Notes: generated from the letters alone by a model not told the origin. A stretch of DNA of 63,121 bases, filler included, from Atractiella rhizophila (GCA_021432655.1; 5 parts of 5 records of this genome joined end to end with filler, not necessarily neighbours in it), one strand, 5' to 3'; counted from the whole stretch's first letter, positions 8,291 to 61,958 are shown. Translations and numbers: made by a program.

Positions 8291-9714
8291 TCACTTATTA
8301 GCGAACTCGACACCCTTCTGGATGTTCTTCTTCAACTCGGGCAAGCAAGCATCCAAGAGTTCCTGCTCCTCCTTCGTGATCTGTCCAACCTCGTGGATCT
8401 TCGACACTCCTTCCTTGCCGAGCTCGACGTTGGACGCGAAGAATTCAATGCCCTCCTTCTCGAATAGAGGGGAGCGGACGAAGGTAGGCTCAACAATGCC
8501 AGTTTGGCCGTCGAGAGCGCGGAGGAGGGCATCGGCGAAGACGGCACCGGCTGTAACATCGACAACATGAACATTAATAATAAATTCTTTGTAGAAACGG
8601 GTGAAAAGGAACGTACCGTAAGCCATAGAAAGGGTAGCAGATCCAGCTCCATCCTTCGCCTTGACGACTTCGTCACCACCGTATTGGATGCGCTTCACGA
8701 CGTCGGCGTAGGTTGATCCACCGGAAGAAAGGACTTTCTGTCCCTCAGCGAGTTGAGAGAGGAGCGGAACGATGGTAGGTCCGCTGTGGCCTCCAACGAC
8801 GGTAACACGGGTCTTGGAGGGATCGGAGGATGCGAGACCGGAAACAAAGGTAGCGGCGCGGACGACGTCGAGGGTGGTCACTCCGAAAAGTCTGTGTGGT
8901 GGCACAATCAGAAAGGTGGAGGGAAGGAGAGAAGGAAACAAACCTCTTGGGGTCAAACACGCCGGCCTTCTTGTAGACTTCGGCAACGATGGGGACGGTG
9001 GAGTTGACGGGGTTGGAGATGATGAGCATGTGTGCTTTGGGTGCTGTCTCAGCGGCAGCTTTTGCGAGGTCGCGAACAATAGAAGCGTTGGTCTGTCATT
9101 CCATTCCATTCATTTCAGATACCCAAAGAATTGAACGGGAAACAGGAAGAAGGATACTCACGTTGAACAAGTCGTCACGGGTCATTCCGGGCTTCCTAGG
9201 TACACCAGCAGGGATGACAATGATGTCTGCTCCCTCGAGAGTGCTCTTCAATCCATCTCCGTCAGGCGCATAGCCCTTGGTCTAAGCACCACCAAACCAC
9301 GTCAACACCTTTTTACCCGAGACAGAAAGTAAAGAGACGCACGACAGCAGGCGAGTTGACATGCGACACGTCTGCTGCTACACCGGGTGCTCCACGGATA
9401 TCGTACAGGGCGAGGGAGGAGACAAGAGGGTTTTGTTTCAAGAGGAGAGAGAGAGGTTGTCCAATTCCACCTGTTCATTCATCAACCAGGCAACCAGTCA
9501 ACCTCTTTCTCATCCACGTGTAGATATGCGTGTAGATATGTAAGCGATTAATACATACCAGCGGCTCCCAAAACGGCAACCTGTTCCAGAGGACATCTCA
9601 TTAGCAGACACCAAAAAAAATTAAGAGCCAGCAGACCTTGTAAGGGTTGACACGGGAGGTAGAGAACGCGCGGCGGCTGAAGGCAGAGAGGCTGCGAGAG
9701 GAGACAGAAAGCAT
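8291..9714 (-). CDS. MDH1: Mitochondrial NAD-dependent malate dehydrogenase
   Basis: Presequence [109 protein letters not shown]. Includes a micro-exon of about 22 nt near 9558-9579. Confidence 0.97.
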
Positions 9715-18571: not shown

Positions 18572-21273
18572 TTATCTTCTCAAGTAATACCCAGCCAATT
18601 GTCGTAGGTCTGATATCAGGGCTTCCGGATTGTCAATTCCTGCGTTATCGTTTGTTAATCATTCATAAGAGAAGCGTGTAGCATACCAGGGAAGTGTCCA
18701 CCTCGATCGTTTTCTACAGCAGAGTCTCAGAATCTGTCTTATTGGGGAATCAAGACTGCTTACCTGTGTAAAAAGTCAAGTTTCCAACTTTCGAAGCGTA
18801 CGCCTTTGGCCATCCACCGACATTATACTTATAATTTGACATGGCCATTGGGGTCGTTGGCACCTTTCCAATATCGTAGGAAGCGCGGAAACCATTTGGA
18901 TTGGCTCCGTAGATCCATTCAGCAGAAAAGAAACTTTCACTCAGATAATATAGGGATACCCAGGAGAGAATTGTATTGTTACTCCACGTTGACGGGGATA
19001 CGCCGAATTGGGGGTCCGACCAAGCGACGAGCTTCTCGCCTATCCAGGATAGTTGACCCATCGGGGAATCCTATCATTCCCCTCATGAGTTATGGAGGAA
19101 TATTGAAAGGTTTGGTGTACCTGGAGAGCGAGACCAATGGTGTTTGGCTAAAATTCTCCTCAGCATTTGATGAAATGAGAGTAAAAAGCAGGACAAACTT
19201 TCGTAGTTTGCTCCAAGAAATAAGCGTTTCCGGTCTTGCTCCACTCTTCCGCCCGAGAAAGAGCGAACTTTTCAAACTCGTCCAACGTGACATTCTCTGC
19301 CTTTGCCTGCGCCAGAGTAGGTGGATAGAAAGGGAGAAAACTGAAGAGTGAGGCTTTGACTGTGGACGAATAATCGGAGTATAAGTAATAAGCGGGATCA
19401 CACCCCCAATCCGTTCCATACGTCGTATACGTTTCATACCCCAGAACGTCAACCATTAAATTATTGAGGATTCGAGCAGTGTCCTTCGTCTGCCATGTAG
19501 GAGATGGAAGCGAAGAGAAGGCGAACCCCGGCAAAGAGGGAACGATAACGTCAAATGATACTGTAGTTGGGTCTTTAGTCAGAGTCACGGGAGGAAGACA
19601 GAACATTTATTTACCTTGGTCTCCTTGCGGATTTGAGCCCAGCTGTGTCAAAGGTTTGATGACGGGAAGAAATTCCAGAAATGACCCTGCGTGGAGTCAG
19701 GGACGAATTCAAGATGGGTAGGGCGAAAGGAACTTGCCTGGCCATCCATGCAAAAGGATGACAGGGATCGAGTTTGCATGCTTCGACCTTTCGTGAACGA
19801 AGTGGATAGTTACATTTTCGATCGTAGCAGTAAATTGGCGGTATCTGCACATCCCAGGGTCGGTGAAGGGGATGGCACAGGATTGAGATTGACGAACGAA
19901 TTAATCTCCTTCTCTTGCTCTTTCCAGTTGAAGTTAGAGAGCCACTCTTGTTTAAGCGCAGAGAGCCACGCAGTTGGCGCGCCAAATTCCCACCCTGAGC
20001 CAAGGAAGCCGGATTTGGGAAGCCTATAATTCTCAAAGAAACTTTCACTCAGATAATATAGGGATACCCAGGAGAGAATTGTATTGTTACTCCACGTTGA
20101 CGGGGATACGCCGAATTGGGGGTCCGACCAGGCGACGAGCTTCTCGCCTATCCAGGATAGTTGACCCATTGGGGAATCCTATCATCACCCTCATGAGTTA
20201 TGGAGGAATATTGAAAGGCTTGGTGTACCTGGAGAGCGAGACCAATGGTGTTTGGCTAAAATACTCCTCAGTATTTGATGAAATGAGAGTAAAAAGCGTA
20301 ACAAACTTTCGTAGTTTGCTCCAAGAAATAAGCGTTTCCAGTCTTGCTCCATTCTTCCGCCCGAGAAAGAGCGAACTTTTCAAACTCGTCCAAAGTGACA
20401 TTCTCTGCCTCTGCCTGCGCCAGAGTAGGGGGGTAGAAAGGGAGAAAACTGAAGAGTGAGGCTTTGACTGTGGAAGAATAATCGGAGTATAAGTAATAAG
20501 CCGGATCACACCCCCAATCCGTTCCATACGTCGTATACGTTTCATACCCCAGAACGTCAACCATTAAATTATTGAGGATTCGAGCAGTGTCCTTCGTCTG
20601 CCATGTAGGAGATGGAAGCGAAGAGAAGGCGAACCCCGGCAAAGAGGGAACGATAACGTCAAATGATACTGTTGTTGGGTCTTTAGTCAGAGTCACGGGA
20701 GGAAGACAGAACATTTATTTACCTTGGTCTCCTTGCGGATTTGAGCCTAGCTGTGTCAAAGGTTTGATGACGGGAAGAAATTCCAGAAATGACCCTGCGT
20801 GGAGTCAAGGATGAATTCAAGGTGGGTGGGGCGAAAGAACTTGCCTGGCCATCCATGCAAAAGGATGACAGGGATCGAGTTTGCATGCTTCGACTTTTCG
20901 TGAACGAAGTGGACTGTTACATTTTCGATCGTAGCAGTAAATTGGCGGTATCTGCACATACCGGGGTCAATGAAGGGACCAGCATAAGATTGAGATTGAC
21001 GAACGAATTAATCTCCCTCTCTTGCTCTTTCCAGTTGAAGTCAGAGAGCCACTCTTGTTTAAGCGCAGAGAGCCACGCAGTTGGCGCGCCAAATTCCCAC
21101 CCTGAGCCAAGGAAGCCGGATTTGGGAAGCCTATAATTCTCTACCAGCGACTTCATCCTCGCTATCGACTTCTGGGGAATGTCAATCTGAAAAGGCTTGA
21201 CATTGGCATTCTGTGAGCCAGTCGCAAGAGCCAAAGCGCTGGCGCCGAAAGTGAAAGGGAGGAAAGCTCTCAT
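18572..21273 (-). CDS. Secreted microsomal-type epoxide hydrolase-like protein with internal in-frame duplication
   Basis: Signal-like MRAFLPFTFGASALALA; EHN domain (VKPFQIDIP, FNWKEQEREINS); HFVHEKS, LLHGWPGSFLEF, VIVPSLPGFAFS, nucleophile GTDWG, C-terminal GGHFPGLDNP. Confidence 0.88.
18927..21141. repeat. Tandem direct duplication of about 1.1 kb (18927-20034 and 20035-21141)
   Basis: Near-identical sequence at offset 1107-1108. The paired ORFs 19160-19606 and 20268-20714 differ by only a few residues. Scattered substitutions lie mostly in introns and third codon positions. Confidence 0.97.
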
Positions 21274-26857: not shown

Positions 26858-27840
26858 ATGCCTTTGCCATACGACAAAGTCACGCTCAGCCTTCTGGGAA
26901 CTTTTTCCGTGGCTTCCCTCTTGTTTGCGCTCACCTCCACGCAATACCACCTCCGTTTGCCCCTCGCATACTTCCTCGCCGATCCCACCTACCAATGGTA
27001 TCGTCTCATCACACACCAGCTCGGATTCACGCAGTCCTCGGAACTTTTTATTGCCGCCATTCTTCTATCACAAATGAGCGGCGTCGAACGCATTCTGGGA
27101 ACAAGACGTTTCGCAAGACTCGTTGTTCAAACTATCTTGTTTTATCCAATTTTCCTGATCGCCATCTTGGTCGCTTTACAGAAACTCGGCTGGAGTGAGA
27201 AGGGGAAAGTGATTGAAGCTGGCGGTTGGGCAATCGTAGGAGCCGTCGGGTCCGTCTTTCCTATTTCTGCAAAATTCATACAACTGAAGCAAGAGCGGAA
27301 CAGATATCAATATCATGAACTCATTCCCGCTACCCTCAATGCCAGAGTGTTCTCTCTACCTCTGACAAATAAGTCTATATCACATCTCCTTTTTCTTCAA
27401 GTGAGCAGCCTAAAGACCTTGAACATATGCCCTGACTGACCTTTCTCTCCTAGGTTATCGTCCTCCATCCACTGCCAACGACGCTCGGGATCTTAATCTC
27501 CCTTCTTTTCCGGCACACAAGACTACACCACCTCTCACTCCCCACCCTTCCTATCGCTCCACTCTTCCGCACCCTCTCTCCCTCCACGTCCGCGTCAATT
27601 TCCGCGTCCCAAACGAGCACAACAGCAATCCCTGCGGCCTTTGGCAGCGGCTACTCCCCCGCGGCTCCTTCGACAGCGGATGGAGAAGCAAATGACAGTG
27701 TACTCGACAGATTCATAAGACGCACTCCAAACGTCACCGTCACTGCAGGAAGGATCGGGCTGTTGGGATCTCTAACCAGGAGAGGCAATGCACCTTCACA
27801 GACGGAGGGGACGACTGCAGTTGCGGCTGGCGCGACTTGA
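26858..27840 (+). CDS. Dsc2/UBAC2-like rhomboid pseudoprotease
   Basis: YQWYRLITHQLGFTQSSELFIAAILL...VERILGTRRFA and YQYHELIP...FSLPLTNKS match the recalled Dsc2/UBAC2 pattern; multiple hydrophobic segments; no C-terminal UBA seen. Confidence 0.72.
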
Positions 27841-30684: not shown

Positions 30685-30784
30685 NNNNNNNNNNNNNNNN
30701 NNNNNNNNNNNNNNNNNNNNNNNNNNNNTTAATTAATTAANNNNNNNNNNNNNNNNNNNNNNNNNNNNNNNNNNNNNNNNNNNN
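30685..30784. other. Assembly gap with artificial TTAATTAATTAA six-frame-stop spacer (same at 54396-54495, 59130-59229, 61859-61958; plain N gap at 56403-56427)
   Basis: 100-nt blocks of N with an identical 12-mer in the centre. Confidence 0.97.
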
Positions 30785-35177: not shown

Positions 35178-35249
35178 GGGGAGCTAGTTTAGTGGTATAA
35201 CATTCGTTTCGCATACGAAAGGTCTGGGGTTCGATTCCCCAGTTCTCCA
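35178..35249 (+). tRNA. tRNA-Ala(CGC)
   Basis: Cloverleaf with acceptor stem GGGGAGC/GTTCTCC and a G3:U70 pair; anticodon arm TTCGT-TT-CGC-AT-ACGAA; T arm CTGGG-GTTCGATT-CCCAG region; followed by a T5 Pol III terminator. Confidence 0.95.
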
Positions 35250-47069: not shown

Positions 47070-47331
47070 CTTTACACTTGAATTTATGGACTGGACTGAT
47101 GAGCGGATTTGTTCTATGCTGGGGTTATCGTTCTTCAACTTTCTTCTCGTCATGTTCATAACTCAACAACATCATCTGCATGGATTAAATATTTTACGCG
47201 TCAAACATGGCAGTGCGGACACTCCACTATCTAACAGCGACAGCGAATGCTCCAAAGAAACATCCCAATGTAATGACGGTGTTGTGACAAAATTGTTTAT
47301 AACGGTATACTAGGCCTTACGTTGCAAGTCC

Positions 47332-47416
47332 CTCTCCTTAGCTCAGTTGGAAGAGCATCAGACTGTAATTGGCTTGTGGTATCTGGGTGTCCTCGGTTCG
47401 ATCCCGAGAGGGGAGA
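47332..47416 (+). tRNA. tRNA-Tyr(GTA) with 12-nt intron (47369-47380)
   Basis: Acceptor stem CTCTCCT/AGGGGAG; D arm GCTC-AGTTGGAA-GAGC; anticodon TCAGA-CT-GTA-A|intron|A-TCTGG; T arm CTCGG-TTCGATC-CCGAG; T6 terminator. Confidence 0.95.
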
Positions 47417-47618
47417 TTTTTTGCTTTTCTGTTACCTCCTTCTTTGGCGTTTGAACCCTGGTGCCATAAATCATCCGACCAGACGTCCCTTTGCCCCAAC
47501 AGCCTCATTTCTCATTTCTATTCCTCCTGCGCCTCTACTCCACTTTAGGACAAGTGTTCTCTTGTGGTGTTGCTTCGCCTGCTGCGGTTTAACCACAACA
47601 TTGGCTAACTTGAAACCC

Positions 47619-48982
47619 ATGTCGTCCCTTCTCGGTGCATCTCTCTGGACACTCCTCTTTCTTCCCACCCTCGCTCGCTCGTTCACAGTCCCCGTGGTCA
47701 TATGGCACGGACTGGGAGATAGGCATGATGCAGAGGGAATGTTAAGCCTCAAGGCGTCCATCGAGGACGAGTTTGGCGGAGACGTGTTTGTACATTTGGT
47801 GAAGATTGAGGAAGATGGGGAGAAGGACCAGTGAGTTCCCTCTGTGGCCTTTGTTTGAGAATGTCAACAAAGGGTTCTGGTCAATGAGCTGTCTCCTACC
47901 CCTTTGCACTTTGGACCGTTTCTTTTCCCTTCATTTCTCAGGCGGCGCCAGCATGATTTTTCTTTCAATTTGAATGATCTTCCATTCAATCCCTCCATTG
48001 TCTGCGAATTGCAGCTTAGTTCTTGTTCTTCAGACGTGCAACATTCTTCGGGTCGGCCAACGCTCAAGTCGAGCTGGTCTGCTCGCAACTACACTCCATT
48101 CCCGAGCTCGTCTCGCCCTCCCTAAACCCCAATCTGACCTTCGACGCCATTGGCTTCTCTCAAGGTGGCCAACTCCTGCGAGCTGTCGTCGAGCGTTGCA
48201 CTTCCCCCAAACTGCGAGTGCGCAATCTCATCACCGTCGGGTCTCAACACATGGGAGTCAATGCCCTCCCTCCTTGTGAATCTGGACCCAACTATGCATT
48301 GTGCAAGTTGATGAGCTGGCTTGCGAGGAGCGGCGTGTATAGCTCTTATGCCCAACGCGAAATTTTGCCCGCTCAGTATTTTCGAAATGAAGCGGAGCTC
48401 GAAAAGTATTGGGCTGCAAACCACTTCTTGAAGGTCCGTCCTTTAACCAGATTTACATAATGTTCTCATTCTTATTAGGATATAAACAATGAGCGAGAAG
48501 GAGACGGACATGTGGAGTCCTTTGGGTCCGCGGATGAGAAGAGAAATGAGACGTATAAAGAGAACCTCTTAACACTCAACAATTTTGTCATGTTTAATTT
48601 CACGTAAGGCATCCCTTCACTCTCACGTTCTGAAGCTGAACGTACGACCGATAACAGAAAGGATCAAACAGTCTCTCCTCCAGCATCGTCCTTCTTCACC
48701 CTTCCAGATCCCTCTGCTCCGTTTCTGCCTCTCCCACTTGCACGACTGCCGCTGTATTCCGAAGATTACATAGGGTTGAAACAGCTGCATGAGCGCGACG
48801 CTCTCTGGTTTGGCACATGTGATGGCTTCCACATGCAAATCGATGAAGCGTGTTGGAACCAAATACTCAGCTGGTTAGGTCCGCAAGGAGCAAAGAGAGG
48901 GCGAAGTGATGGGACTTGGGACGGAGGGAGGAAGAGTGTGATGCCGGAAGAGGAACGGCTAGTTTTTCAAGCTTGGAAATAG
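47619..48982 (+). CDS. Palmitoyl-protein thioesterase 1-like
   Basis: Signal peptide; PVVIWHGLGD, DAIGFSQGGQLLRAVVERC (Ser), NLITVGSQHMGV, PAQYFR, FLKDINNER, KDQTVSP (Asp), LYSEDYIGLKQL, CDGFHMQI (His). Confidence 0.92.
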
Positions 48983-53904: not shown

Positions 53905-54627
53905 TGTTTTCGGTTCACGTCGAAGTCAATCTCATGATTTCTCTGTGTAACATTCATCAAATCATAACGATATCCACCGTATGTATACAGTCTGTATCCA
54001 TTTGTACACCATTCACAATAGAACGCTGTTGTTCAGCACTCCCTAATTAAGACAGCTCGTCTACCTTCAGCCCTGGTGAGTTTTCACGAATACGAACATC
54101 CGACTCGTTATCATGATTTGCAAGCATCCAAAAAGAAAAGGTCATGTACTCGACTAATTAAGAGAACGTCAAAATGAAACCAGGTAGCTTGACTCATCAG
54201 TCAGGTTCAAGTGTTCAAGTTGCTTGGTGCCTTCAAGTTGTTGGGGCATTGCTTGATATTGCATTATCGTGGTTGGGGCAAAATATTATTACTGGAGGAA
54301 ATCACCAGACTCCGTCAAATTCTACTTCAACTTGAAGTTAGCTATCAGTCCATCGGCCGCGCGACCCACTTCCAAACAAAATCAATAGATATGAANNNNN
54401 NNNNNNNNNNNNNNNNNNNNNNNNNNNNNNNNNNNNNNNTTAATTAATTAANNNNNNNNNNNNNNNNNNNNNNNNNNNNNNNNNNNNNNNNNNNNGGCGA
54501 CATGGACTGCTTTTCGGGTTTCATTAATTTTGGTTTTGGTTTCGTATTGTTGGCTCTTACAATTCCTGCGCAATGATGATGATGATTTGACGCTCTACAC
54601 AGCGACATTGCATTTGGTCATTGATAG

Positions 54628-55994
54628 TTACAACTTAGGCTTTTCGCCCTCCGGTCCTTTATACCACTCTACTCTCCCGACCTTATCTCGAACTTTCCCC
54701 TCCGCCAAATACTCACGATAATACTCCCACGGGCCTCCTTTGTAACTGTGCTCCTTGCGAAACGTGTCAACATGGCCGCAGCTCTCCCAGCCTATCGATT
54801 TCGCATCAATCCATCGTCCCTGGAATCTAGCGAGTGGGCAGCGGTTCATCTGATCTGTTCATGCAATGAGTATTTCAGACGGTGATGGGAAAGAGACGAA
54901 CCCCTCATAGGTTCTGTGGAACTAATCAACCTGTCATCGTTATAGCAAACCATTAAGGTATCGGTTGAATATGTCGTCTTGCCGTCAGGCGAACCTGTCC
55001 GTTCCCAGATGTAATCTTTCCGAAGCATGCCTCCCCACCAATCTTCAGCTATTCCCAACGTCATGTCCTCCCCAACGTTTGACTCCGCACCGGATAGGTA
55101 GCCAAGTTCTCTTGACAGCGCCAAAGCAGAAGATAGCCTCTTGTGAGCGGCTTCGATAGATGTAGGCGGATTCTGGTTACCTTCTTCTCGCATCTCGCAG
55201 AAGTGAACGGAGGGATTGAAGGAGCTGACAAGTAGAGCACGGGAGAAGCGGGAGGTATAAACGAGGGGAAGGAGGGTGAAGAGGGTTCCTGAGCACGCCT
55301 TTGTTAGTCTATGCATTCCTCTGCTTGAAATGCGACGGGAACTCTTACCTCCATTGCTATGTCCACACCACACTAGCTCTTCTCCTCGAAAGCGGGTAAA
55401 GATGAATTCGATGGCAGCTTTCATGTCGTTTGCCCAAGAGTGAATCATGTCCACTTGCGGAGCTGCCTTCAGAGCTTCGATCATCGATTCGCGCGATTTG
55501 AGATTCACGCCTGGCGGGTAGGATTCACCGACATATCTGAAGGAGAAGACAAAGGTGGCATGACCGTGATTTGCTAGATACCTGTGTTTATCACTGTTAT
55601 TGTTCCTTCTCGGAGGGAAAGAAGTGAGAGCTGACGTTGCAAAGTCGAAATAGAACCGAGCTGGTACGCCTGATGCCGGAGCAATGACCACGACGTTCTA
55701 CCAGACATCCGATCAGTTTCTGCGGGAGGCAGAATGCATATCAATCTACCTTCAATGGCACTTCTGCCCTGACGAATAAATAGCCCCTGGTGGGAAACGA
55801 GCCGTCTTCCGTCTTCAAAGCAACACGCTCCGGGAAAGCCTGATCTGTGTTATGCATACTTCTAGCTGTTGCTTTGCTTCGAACATTCGGGAGTGGGGAT
55901 TATAAACACGAAAGAAGGGAGACGCGATGGTGATGCTCGAGGTTGCCGGTTGAGATAACGGATCAACCGGAGGTGCTCGCGCAGCATCAGGCAT
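54628..55994 (-). CDS. Alpha/beta hydrolase, COG4757-like
   Basis: VVIAPASGVPARFYFDFA, FSFRYVGES, W.NDMKAAIEF, GHSNGG (Ser), YNDDRL (Asp), IGWESCGHVDTFR (His); several short introns; start probably MPDAARAPP. Confidence 0.75.
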
Positions 55995-56599
55995 CCCTTC
56001 TGCCCATCTAAAGGCGGCGGACTCAACTGCCACTTTTGTTACCTTAACCGTTAAGGACAGCAAGTTGACGTTTCTCTGTCCATTACTGGTTCTGCACAGC
56101 CATCATTCATTGTCATCAATTCAATTCAACAGGAGCAGCATGGAGAAGCAATGATTCGAATATTAATCAATGATGCTTGTCTCCTCAGGACCCCTAAAGC
56201 ATTGTAAAACAATTCATGAACAACATGGTTTCTCCTGGGCCTGCATCGATACAACACTCGCAGCTTCCGAATGGGCGCAGTTGTACATGTCCCCATTGCG
56301 TTTTCACACGCAAAGCGACAAAATCGACAAAAATTTCAGCTTTACACCCGAACAAACTATCTTCGTACGCCTGAGATGACCAGACCTTCATATGCTCATC
56401 GANNNNNNNNNNNNNNNNNNNNNNNNNGATCTGTTAACCCTCCATCCAGCAGGCGAAAGTACTCCTATCCTTATTTGTTGCGAACAGACGCTGCAGGTCA
56501 AAGCACGTAATACGCTGCCTTCCGCCAGCTCTTTACTCCTGCCAGGCCCTCAGCGCAAAGACCTATGTCCCGCCCTGCATCAACCCAAGTCAGCCTATA

Positions 56600-57950
56600 C
56601 AGCAGCACCATAACCACGGCCTTCGCCTCCTTATATTAGTTCTAGAAGTCGCTAGCTCCTTCGCTGTCGTAGTGACAAAACTCAAAACCCAAAGAAGAAA
56701 AACTCTTTTCTAAGCCTATCCAGCAGTAGACGTGGTGCGGAGGAGGAAGAGGAGGTCGAGACAACAACTAGGGAGGCGTTCCGGCTGTCCAGGTTTGAAG
56801 AGGAGTACAGGTTTCGTTAGGGCAGAGATAGACCCGACGTGGAGCAAAGTGTTAGATCTCGCCGCGTGACTACATTTCGGGGCAGTACGGGTTGTACCGA
56901 CGCGGTAACACGGCACTAGCCCCAATTCTTCCGTAGACTCCGCCGAACAACGCAACCCAGTCAGTTCGCGTCTCATACAACCTATCCGTAACACCCAACC
57001 GCGCCGTTTCTTCTTGACCACACTTCCAACAGCATTAATGACCGACGAAGCAGTTAACGAGCTCAGCGACTTACTAGAACTTTTAACCTCAGTCAAACCT
57101 CAGATCCCTGCTTGTTTTCCTTCGACTCCTTGGCTGGATACAAAGAAACGGGTAGAAACTGCATCACACGCTCCAGCTTCTCCTTTACCTTCTCGACCTA
57201 TACTAGCGAGGATTCGACAACCCCCTATACTCTCTACTAGACCAGCTTATCGGCTACTACGTACATTTTATAACTCCTAGTGTCATACGCCTAACACAAA
57301 TCCGCATACAGACAATCCCGTCTCGAGCACTTCCTCTAACTACGAACTTACGCTACATTCGATTTACTCTTAATACAACAATGCTACCTTACCCGAGAAG
57401 TCACGAAAAGTCACAGTCAGAATTTCGTTGCCACTTACAAAGCAGCAAAGAAAGTACGCCGTGTTACAGGGAACAGCTGAACAAGCGCAAGATACAAGGG
57501 TTGTTACAGTGCTTTGGTTTGTCTTCCGCTTTCCCGGTGCACGCGCATTTCCCCTGTTTCCCTAGAGCACAGGCACGTGTGAGATTACGGACGTTCACCC
57601 TACGCTTCTCTTGAAGCGTTCCTTTCACACCGGTAAGTTCCACCAGTCACTTTTTCGAAATGTTCTTTAAACTCGACTCTTGTGATTGTCTTATGCAACT
57701 TTGGCATATCACAAGTTCGAAGGTTGTTACTTCATGTTCGGTCCTTACCGGAGACTCGTGTAGGTCCAAAAAAGTCAGGAGACGTCACAGAGTATCACGG
57801 ACAGGCAGAAGCGTTCGGCGGAGATTGCTCGGGTTGAAGTAAAGTGAGCGAGTAACCCGACGCGAGATGCGGGAGCCATGTTGCGATGCGCGTAAACCGC
57901 CTACCCAGCTCTTCTTGGGTTAGGCTACCGAGTATGAGCGTTAGACGTTC
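56600..57950 (-). pseudogene. Hypermutated (CpA->TpA on minus strand) gene or repeat relic
   Basis: Plus-strand TpA excess and TpG loss. A minus-strand frame at about 57093-57371 has seven TAA/TAG stops and reads as protein-like when they are restored to Gln. Boundaries are approximate. Confidence 0.6.
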
Positions 57951-57969
57951 TTAGAGAGGTTGCCTAAGC

Positions 57970-59100
57970 TTGTCGGTGGAGGTGCCTGTGCTAACTGTGA
58001 CCACCTTGCTGGTACCCGTTGACCAAGCCTCCTGGTCGTCACAGATTCTACAGAATGGTCTCCTATATCGTCCGTTTGGAGCAAAGAAGAAGTTTCAGAT
58101 GGAGTTTTCGATTCCTAACCCTCCTTCACCACAACAGAGCTGTTCGCATGACATCACTTCTTCCCTCAGAGGAACATACCCTCCCGAAACTTGCCCTCCA
58201 ATATTACTGTCCACACACCTCCTGGAAACGTCTAAGGCGACTCCTCCGCCTCCGGAACTTCAGGAACCTCCTGTACGACTGCCTCACGAGCCCCCGTTCA
58301 GGGACATCTATCCCCGGCGGAATCTCCCTCCTGCATGTGAGGAGCCTACAACGTCTTCCGAACACGGTAATGCGTGGTGGGATACAACTAAAAAGGAATC
58401 ATTCGGATCCAGTCCGAATCATACTCACGTCCACAATGTCACTTTTCTACCCGAGTTGTCCTTACATGATGGTGGACGTCTCGAAGACAGACCAAATGAA
58501 GGAGACTGGCGTGTCACGGGCTGTTGCCGCGTAGGAGGAAATGGAGAGGAACAGTGCAATTATATTGCACAACCGCCGCCGTACTTTGGAACGAAAATGG
58601 GGCATGGTGAAGGAGAAGAGCGGGACCAGGTCCGAATGAGGTTGCAGAGGAAAGACAATGCTCTCAACGCAGGACAAAATCCTGAAGCAAAAGAGCAACC
58701 TGAGGCTGCTGACAACAATTTGACGCAGGGCACTGGTCCGAGATGCCGAGGAGGAGTTGATGCAAGAGTTGGGGAACATGATCGAATCGAGAACGAGGCG
58801 ATCTACGTTCCAGGGAGAACGCTAGATTATCGATACCTGCTTCCTCATACCGAGCAGCGTAGGGCATTGAGCTTCATTGAGTCCGAGGTTTGGGAGGAGC
58901 CTGATCCTGATTCCGAAGAAGGCGATGGGAGCCACAAATCCCAGGCCGAGGAAGAGCTTCGCGATGTTGGTGGTGAGGAGGGACATGCCCAGGACGACGC
59001 AGATGTTGAGGAGAAGGGAGGCAAAGCTGAGGTGGAAGACGATGCAAGTGAAGAGTGGGATTGCGATCTCTATCCCGACGACTCAGACGAGGAGGTTTAA
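57970..59100 (+). CDS. Hypothetical Pro-rich/acidic protein
   Basis: 376-codon open frame (first Met at about 58099); no recognised domain; lies between the hypermutated segment and a gap. Confidence 0.5.
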   Translation: MSVEVPVLTVTTLLVPVDQASWSSQILQNGLLYRPFGAKKKFQMEFSIPNPPSPQQSCSHDITSSLRGTYPPETCPPILLSTHLLETSKATPPPPELQEPPVRLPHEPPFRDIYPRRNLPPACEEPTTSSEHGNAWWDTTKKESFGSSPNHTHVHNVTFLPELSLHDGGRLEDRPNEGDWRVTGCCRVGGNGEEQCNYIAQPPPYFGTKMGHGEGEERDQVRMRLQRKDNALNAGQNPEAKEQPEAADNNLTQGTGPRCRGGVDARVGEHDRIENEAIYVPGRTLDYRYLLPHTEQRRALSFIESEVWEEPDPDSEEGDGSHKSQAEEELRDVGGEEGHAQDDADVEEKGGKAEVEDDASEEWDCDLYPDDSDEEV

Positions 59101-59229
59101 CGAGTGTTGATGCTGATGAACAGGTTTCTNNNNNNNNNNNNNNNNNNNNNNNNNNNNNNNNNNNNNNNNNNNNTTAATTAATTAANNNNNNNNNNNNNNN
59201 NNNNNNNNNNNNNNNNNNNNNNNNNNNNN

Positions 59230-61724: not shown

Positions 61725-61958
61725 GTTATGCTTCGTGTGGAGCGTGTTGAGGATATGCTGGTGCTGGACAATGGAATGAGAAGAGTTAGTCGTTCAAAGT
61801 TGCTGTGAGATTTGGAGACGCGTAACTATTCGTGAAATCTCCCTTCTTCTTTCACACANNNNNNNNNNNNNNNNNNNNNNNNNNNNNNNNNNNNNNNNNN
61901 NNTTAATTAATTAANNNNNNNNNNNNNNNNNNNNNNNNNNNNNNNNNNNNNNNNNNNN

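Follow-up and report, generated by a model that had tools for sequence, protein, structure and literature searches.

A 268-bp tract in which TpG is nearly absent and TpA is strongly raised was found in the window, the whole stretch of 63,121 nucleotides analysed here, in which scaffolds are chained by N44-TTAATTAATTAA-N44 linkers. The tract has sharp edges and a strand asymmetry, spares CpG and lies in an island of unusual composition whose right end coincides with a break in homology at ~58045. In the reading preferred here, tentatively and with somewhat less than even confidence, this core tract and, more weakly, a mirror-image tract nearby may be the outcome of strand-coordinated C-to-T change at CpA. 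The contig that carries both tracts spans 56428-59129, and the features referred to first are the following.

56403-56427, no strand: 25-N assembly gap, the left limit of the island
56428-58045, no strand: compositional island of 1.6 kb, apparently non-coding, running from the 25-N gap to the start of homology
57161-57428, minus strand: core tract, 268 bp, with 2 TG and 27 TA
57806-58002, plus strand: weaker mirror-image tract, CpA depleted and TpA raised, with polarity opposite to that of the core

On the plus strand, positions 57181-57420 hold 27 TpA, 2 TpG, 17 CpA and 14 CpG, which agrees exactly with a hand count given in an earlier note on this DNA; the base counts of the same segment are C75 A71 T64 G30, and the means of 240-bp windows across the 63 kb are 9.5 TA, 15.6 TG, 16.3 CA and 12.8 CG. 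Both extremes of the 63 kb, most TA and fewest TG, fall on the 240-bp window that starts at 57161. Observed counts and the window-wide expectation, applied to 57160-57430, compare as follows.

57160-57430, TG: 4 observed, 17.6 expected
57160-57430, TA: 27 observed, 10.7 expected
57160-57430, CG: 16 observed, 14.4 expected
57160-57430, CA: 21 observed, 18.5 expected
57160-57430, GG: 2 observed, 15.0 expected
57160-57430, AC: 32 observed, 15.7 expected (2.0x)
57160-57430, CT: 30 observed, 17.7 expected (1.7x)

TpG is nearly gone from the plus strand of the core and TpA is 2.5-fold above expectation, with CpG and CpA unaffected; in minus-strand terms, CpA is lost and TpA gained. As evidence this amounts to a single 270-bp anomaly of composition, located in a draft contig next to a gap. 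The strand-asymmetric loss of TpG with retention of CpA and CpG, as the earlier note had described it, is real, and fits C-to-T change at CpA on the minus strand. The edges of the tract are sharp, with TG/TA counts of 7/13 in 56900-57160 (261 bp), 2/27 in 57161-57428 and 17/11 in 57429-57700 (272 bp). Stretches with just two TpG reach their greatest length for the whole window in the core, at 269 bp; outside the island, the longest one free of gaps measures 208 bp. Its log2(TA/TG) is 3.03 against a mean of -0.73 (sd 0.71; 2036 windows of 270 bp), corresponding to a z of 5.3, and the maximum outside this half of the contig is 1.53. After correction for base composition, the core has a rho(TA) of 1.29, equalled by none of 1981 outside windows, and a rho(TG) of 0.42, below which none of the 1981 falls. 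Few TpG also occur in the G-poor 240-bp windows at 27441 and 40881. A TpA-rich, TpG-poor spot at ~49111 was considered as a second case and set aside, as it is plain AT-rich sequence and not comparable.

The same figures leave room for a quite plausible, if somewhat doubtful, alternative in which nothing was mutated and the tract is simply odd non-coding DNA, pyrimidine-rich, poor in G and full of YTAC words. The enriched dinucleotides AC, CT and TA are exactly those making up the words ACT, CTA and TAC, all three of which are among the commonest trinucleotides of the core, and 16 of the 27 core TpA lie in TAC, which is not predicted by a simple change of TpG to TpA. G-poverty and low TpG moreover reach past the TpA-rich core, across 56880-57160, and the imbalance between TG and CA is marginal once local base counts are allowed for (binomial p 0.12 for the core and 0.03 for 56428-57430). 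Values of rho(TG) down to 0.46 are found in other G-poor windows; with the imbalance marginal and G-poor windows also poor in TpG, the TpA excess is therefore the sole strongly unusual element. Since the tract came out of a very extensive scan, being extreme in one window is no proof of mutational origin. Unmutated native sequence does not, however, readily account for the TpA excess itself: the 90 other G-poor windows have a mean rho(TA) of 0.57 and reach 1.04 at most, against 1.29 in the core, which is the joint extreme in rho(TA) and rho(TG) among ~2000 windows. The sharp edges and the presence of a mirror-image tract nearby also count against it, as does the lack of any tandem or cryptic repeat structure. 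The k-mer repeats of the core are no more frequent than in dinucleotide-preserving shuffles, and its TpA sites are dispersed in the manner of point changes, with no strong codon phase. A decayed microsatellite was ruled out as the origin of the core on the same absence of tandem or cryptic repeats. The search for a hairpin or structured DNA at the tract was negative (z = +1.1).

Reversion of the presumed changes gave information on their direction. Changing TA to TG brought the dinucleotide distance of the core nearer to normal, from 83.0 to 57.8, whereas changing TA to CA worsened it to 147.6, so that G-to-A change on the plus strand is favoured, if anything happened. Full TA-to-TG reversion overshoots, giving 31 TG where 17.6 are expected and 27 GC where 14.6 are expected, and leaves the core near the 95th percentile of oddity. 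The failure of full reversion to restore normal sequence speaks for native composition; given the overshoot, at most about 17-20 changes would fit, and by simple arithmetic ~17-20 reversions from TpA to TpG would bring the G content up from 13% to ~19%, the value in the flanks. A minus-strand frame with seven TAA or TAG stops and no TGA, pointed out in the earlier note, was recovered from 57371 down to 57096. All seven vanish on reversion of TpA and no TGA is left, which shows them to be TAA or TAG throughout. The use of this reopened frame as support for hypermutation is circular: no TAA or TAG in any frame survives reversion of TpA, so that an open frame is expected and carries zero evidential weight. 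In line with this, the same treatment opens a stop-free frame in 67% of 1898 random windows, and the codon score of the reverted frame, 0.00, lies below the null mean of 0.05 for the best of six frames.

The mirror-image tract is less pronounced. Nowhere else does the window run for as long (196 bp) on just two CpA, the closest ungapped contender measuring 170 bp; 57830-57990 holds 2 CA against 10.9 expected and 10 TA against 6.4 expected, and the log2(TA/CA) of the tract tops the 2036 windows narrowly (1.05 vs 0.96). Both tracts are inside the island, 380 bp apart. The nearby second tract of opposite polarity was counted in favour of the deamination reading.

Opposite polarities in neighbouring tracts could also arise if a deaminase unrelated to RIP had acted on single-stranded DNA, either coupled to transcription on the non-template strands of two diverging units or by editing of a cDNA that was then inserted. 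The switch of polarity would fit the non-template strands of divergent units, the strand that leads outwards from a centre at ~57430-57800 being rich in G and poor in CpA in each tract, and having one strand near saturation with the other untouched is typical of single-strand substrates. A perfect direct repeat of 8 bp at the edges of the core resembles a target-site duplication.

57141-57148 and 57446-57453, plus strand: 8-bp perfect direct repeat CAAAGAAA, the copies flanking the core

Such pairs are, however, near chance expectation (~1 in 381 bp), and the placement of CAAAGAAA at both core edges is suggestive only (rough p about 0.03-0.05); no inverted or terminal inverted repeats were found around the core. 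Further points against a single-strand deaminase are that the island has no transcript evidence, that neither a retroelement domain nor a poly-A tail nor a terminal repeat was found in it, and that the mirror tract is just a marginal outlier. AID/APOBEC enzymes take their specificity from the base 5' of the C, whereas the apparent specificity in the tract lies in the base 3' of it. To our knowledge, no AID/APOBEC-type enzyme has been characterised in fungi, where there are only predicted OTT_1508-like deaminases. In PMC3239186, the OTT_1508-like clade is described as expanded in basidiomycetes and is proposed, on prediction, as a mutator of selfish DNA, which makes it a conceivable agent. An origin by such a deaminase appears quite improbable.

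Beyond the two tracts, the island as a whole differs from its surroundings. By strand-symmetric dinucleotide distance it supplies the top 4 of 290 windows of 800 bp (167-192), the median being 80, the 95th percentile 137 and the next best value 166; the remainder of the contig, 58046-59129, is typical at 80. The main cause of this oddity is a two-fold deficit of ApT, with rho(ApT) of 0.41-0.53 in the island vs 0.91 in the window and 53 ApT where ~96 are expected. Depleted trinucleotides are AAT/ATT, ATG/CAT and ATC/GAT, and enriched ones AAC/GTT, TAC/GTA and ACC/GGT. An ApT deficit is unrelated to C-to-T change and cannot be made by it, so that the island may simply be unusual sequence, a further point for native composition. 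The GC content of the island is 0.50 (0.44 in the core), similar to that found elsewhere in the window. AT enrichment is thus lacking, and GC has not been lowered as in typical RIPped DNA.

Searches with the island were negative throughout. Its six read-through frames gave only noise in Pfam (best E 0.008 and 0.02, failing the family cut-offs), Rfam returned nothing beyond noise, and a HMMER search of the earlier note's frame, with stops as X, against 1.84 billion representative proteins gave 0 matches. Word-indexed protein searches, which covered proteins of near length only, found nothing at E <= 0.1 for the plus-frame ORF 56909-57277 or for the minus frame 56719-57249. A 28-letter degenerate pattern of the core had 0 matches in metagenome contigs, and the island had none in plasmid and phage collections. 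Pfam domains and repeat finders disclosed no transposable-element feature in the island, and no coding frame was apparent in it by a codon-usage score that separates only weakly in this genome. Protein, metagenome, plasmid and phage searches gave no homologous DNA or protein for the tract.

Immediately to the right of the island, the sequence can be placed.

58051-58428, plus strand: conserved exon of a lineage-restricted gene, by similarity to P0001
58429-58490, plus strand: possible 62-nt GT..AG intron of the same gene, skipped by one contig of sequencing run X1

The sole match of the exon (E 1.3e-50) is the hypothetical protein P0001 from Atractiella rhizophila (Pucciniomycotina, Atractiellomycetes, a basidiomycete), and the two share 74% identity over 126-127 residues (260-386 in P0001). 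By this similarity the exon assigns the right half of the contig to an Atractiella-like fungus, and since it matches a protein of this Pucciniomycotina species, the label of apparent basidiomycete attached to the DNA in the earlier note holds for that half. Upstream of the exon, neither tblastn nor six-frame Smith-Waterman alignment located the N-terminal part of P0001 (259 residues), the scores being no better than for shuffles. Peptides of the exon gave no confirmed match in metagenome contigs. The intron is seen in a single low-depth contig (depth 5.4) whose short side measures 27 letters.

The left end of the exon is also where related sequences part from the window. Public sequencing runs X1-X3, with no RNA run listed beside them, contain about one third of the words of the window, and contigs from the three runs are ~99% identical to both flanks, 54496-56402 and 58050-59129. 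With contigs placed at 80% likeness, 56511-58050 is uncovered, and this hole was not used as evidence. X2 and X3 contigs that reach 56402 proceed into letters absent from the window, and before 58050 the contigs of the relatives encode SGRPTSQLS, close to SGRPTTQLS of P0001, where the window reads SWSSQIL. Even with as many as 3 mismatches allowed, the run-on letters have no match in the window, nor have they one as purine/pyrimidine patterns (best 23-25 of 30, vs window-wide chance maxima of 25-27). Close relatives thus carry other sequence to the left of ~58045. The position of the island beside an assembly gap, interrupting homology with relatives, was counted in favour of the deamination reading.

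This arrangement would also be expected if the island were foreign or chimeric, that is, a contaminant, a horizontally acquired segment such as a RIP-mutated ascomycete repeat, or the result of a misjoin at ~58045. The boundaries of composition and homology coincide at ~58045, the relatives' contigs diverge from the window at both 56402 and 58050 into letters that are unlike the island even as purine/pyrimidine patterns, the island occupies the end of a contig beside a gap, and the only positive composite RIP indices of the window fall within it. Yet the island shares a single gap-free contig with the Atractiella-specific exon, it matches neither plasmids (vector-like DNA) nor phages, its window-like GC is unlike that of heavily RIPped ascomycete DNA, and neither Pfam nor three protein searches assigned it to another taxon. 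A foreign or chimeric origin is considered unlikely; should it apply, the signature would be uninformative on any basidiomycete mechanism. The earlier note had offered a wholly ascomycete contig as an alternative, which the Atractiella-specific gene fragment contradicts for the right half, while it may still apply to the 1.6-kb left half, which is without a known relative and stops where homology with relatives starts.

Strand-coordinated change at CpA, the reading preferred here, was further compared with the properties of RIP. Using thresholds for 1-kb windows of product > 1.1, substrate <= 0.75 and composite > 0 (PMC6963459), none of 117 windows passed all three. The composite index was positive in three windows, all of them in the contig of the tract (1.19, 0.96 and 0.14; the next value is -0.05). 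Island windows have product indices of 1.74-1.94, composite indices of 0.96-1.19 and substrate indices of 0.76-0.78, and the high TpA/ApT ratio behind the product index owes much to the ApT deficit. The core by itself gives 1.69 (product), 0.62 (substrate) and 1.06 (composite), and the pattern of substrate lost and product gained is confined to these 270 bp and, weakly, the mirror tract. In terms of composition, the core displays the preference for CpA typical of RIP (CpA/TpG lost, TpA gained, CpG spared) and clustering on one strand; conditioning on base composition leaves this asymmetry weak (p 0.12).

The earlier note had further supposed that the process acted on a duplicated sequence. Within the 63-kb window, blastn found no second copy of the tract or island, and after collapse of G/A or C/T it returned low-complexity matches only. 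As neither a second nor an unmutated copy turned up, no substitution in the tract was observed as such. The sole real duplicate of the window served as an internal control.

18927-21141, no strand: tandem duplication, 2 x 1.1 kb, within an epoxide-hydrolase-like gene, 96.4% identity

The 1108-bp copies differ by 39 substitutions, 28 of them transitions (G>A 8, C>T 7, T>C 7, A>G 6), with ~4 of the CpA/TpA type and ~5 at CpG. This is an ordinary spectrum with no polarity, no preference for CpA and no RIP-type bias, and action on duplicated DNA is unsupported in the window. Among its 54 long ORFs, which encode malate dehydrogenase, GT21, SF3A3, RPN2, UPF1, HECT, MBOAT and other ordinary eukaryotic proteins, Pfam detected neither a transposable-element protein nor a DNA methyltransferase, RID/Masc1/DIM-2 included.

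RIP aimed at CpA is viewed as a feature of ascomycetes that is linked with RID. The tract resembles classical RIP of Neurospora and other Pezizomycotina in the apparent change of CpA to TpA with CpG relatively spared, and in its sharp-edged clusters of one strand each; in Neurospora, a RIP cluster carries either C>T alone or G>A alone on a given strand in ~92% of cases (PMC7296669). It differs in having no duplicate partner within 63 kb, in not being enriched in AT and in its length of ~270 bp, set against the linked repeats over ~400 bp with over 80% identity that form the Neurospora substrate according to PMC3318451. A further difference is that the 1.1-kb tandem duplicate of the window, which would qualify, is not mutated likewise. 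The host, moreover, is a basidiomycete, and PMC13297926 reports RID and DIM-2 from Ascomycota and DIM-2 as absent in Basidiomycota, a group for which neither is reported.

A second system for comparison comes from Pucciniomycotina, where transposable elements show RIP-like hypermutation at TpCpG (Horns et al. 2012, PMC3318451). Judged by the neighbouring Atractiella-type gene the subphylum is the same, and both would be C-to-T hypermutation of presumed defensive function. In the tract, however, CpG is spared or enriched, and neither TCG nor CGA is depleted: the core holds 6 TCG vs 4.4 expected and 8 CGA vs 4.8, and the flanks 10 TCG vs 11.9 and 9 CGA vs 10.0. The core has no excess of TTG (1 vs 5.2 expected), and the island is devoid of any detected transposable-element feature, unlike the elements that this process is described from. 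Clusters of the AID/APOBEC type and G-to-A hypermutated retroelement copies are like the tract in being short, restricted to a single strand and near-saturated at preferred sites. They differ from it in that the visible determinant of the tract is the 3' base (A), and, for the retroelement copies, in that no retroelement parts were found in the island. The base 5' of the presumed minus-strand C would be G at 16 of 27 sites, which local composition could equally give. On these comparisons the tract is not the TpCpG process of Pucciniomycotina, and resembles classical CpA-type RIP in its working, although defining points of RIP, such as a duplicate partner in the 63 kb, observed substitutions and AT enrichment, did not turn up.

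If the deamination reading is right, C would have been converted to T on one strand in each tract, preferentially where the next base was A, with CpG spared. The core would then stem from a burst of such changes at minus-strand CpA, and the mirror tract from a smaller burst on the plus strand, possibly made by one enzyme moving along a single strand of an inserted or rearranged segment. The substrate would be the 1.6-kb non-coding segment found where close relatives have the 5' part of a gene; because it replaces this part, it is probably inserted or rearranged and possibly repeated DNA. What we infer here beyond the counts is an ancestral TpG at the TpA sites, past or present repetition of the segment, the action of the process in this fungus, and the enzyme involved.

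A literature search that was not specific to this question found no prior report of CpA-type hypermutation in Atractiellomycetes. The present value of the tract is as a pointer to the full assembly and not as a result in itself. A true CpA-directed, strand-exclusive tract in a relative of Atractiella would mean either a second basidiomycete system, mechanistically different from the TpCpG process, or the uptake of RIP-mutated foreign DNA. It is conceivable, though improbable on the sequence evidence, that Atractiellomycetes have a CpA-directed, strand-processive deamination defence that would mark new or repeated DNA in short tracts, independently of TpCpG and of RID, and that may perhaps draw on an expanded deaminase family.

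Across the entire island of odd composition (56428–58045), the trinucleotides AAC/GTT, ACC/GGT and TAC/GTA were over-represented and ApT showed a two-fold deficit (53 observed vs about 96 expected), and no C-to-T process, such as the strand-coordinated, RIP-like CpA to TpA change proposed for the core tract, accounts for these features. This pattern is similar to that produced by strongly C-ending codon usage in the malate dehydrogenase gene, with its low ApT at 8701–8851; however, none of the frames of the island scored as coding. Within the island, the TpA-rich core tract (57161–57428) was flanked almost exactly by the two copies of a short repeat:

57141–57148 and 57446–57453, 8-bp perfect direct repeat, CAAAGAAA

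The pair brackets the tract in the manner of a target-site duplication, with neither inverted ends nor a poly-A tail found at the bracketed tract, and about one 8-bp repeat pair is expected by chance in this region.

The ORF at 57955–59100 had a sole match (one hit), to the Atractiella rhizophila hypothetical protein P0001. No counterpart of residues 1–259 of P0001 was found for it in the window and no ATG was present upstream of its conserved part; the gene copy at this locus may be 5′-truncated. A 62-nt segment with GT..AG ends (58429–58490) was skipped by one low-depth contig from X1, one of three public sequencing runs of related organisms (X1, X2 and X3), and skipping it would change the frame of the long ORF. 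For the alpha/beta-hydrolase gene region at 54678–55699, each of the three runs also contained, in addition to a near-identical version, another one with about 85–90% identity and diverged introns. In these organisms, the additional version may represent a paralogue, another haplotype or another subgenome.

Elsewhere in the window, the following were identified:

30685–30784, 54396–54495, 59130–59229 and 61859–61958, four identical linkers, N44-TTAATTAATTAA-N44
35178–35249, tRNA-Ala(CGC) gene
47332–47416, tRNA-Leu(TAA) gene, 85 nt, within the stop-to-stop ORF 47277–47834
18927–21141, tandem duplication of a 1108-bp unit, copies perfectly adjacent with 96.4% identity

Given the four linkers, the window consists of separate scaffolds (about 30.7, 23.6, 4.6, 2.6 kb, and more) that were concatenated, and sequences on either side of a linker need not be adjacent in the genome. 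The ORF containing the tRNA-Leu gene has the start of a palmitoyl-protein thioesterase domain at its C-terminal end. The gene containing the tandem duplication is epoxide-hydrolase-like and lies on the minus strand, with one Abhydrolase_1 domain per copy of the unit and an EHN domain just past them. The duplication may be genuine, either intragenic or of a gene in tandem, or it may reflect two haplotypes that the assembly placed one after the other.
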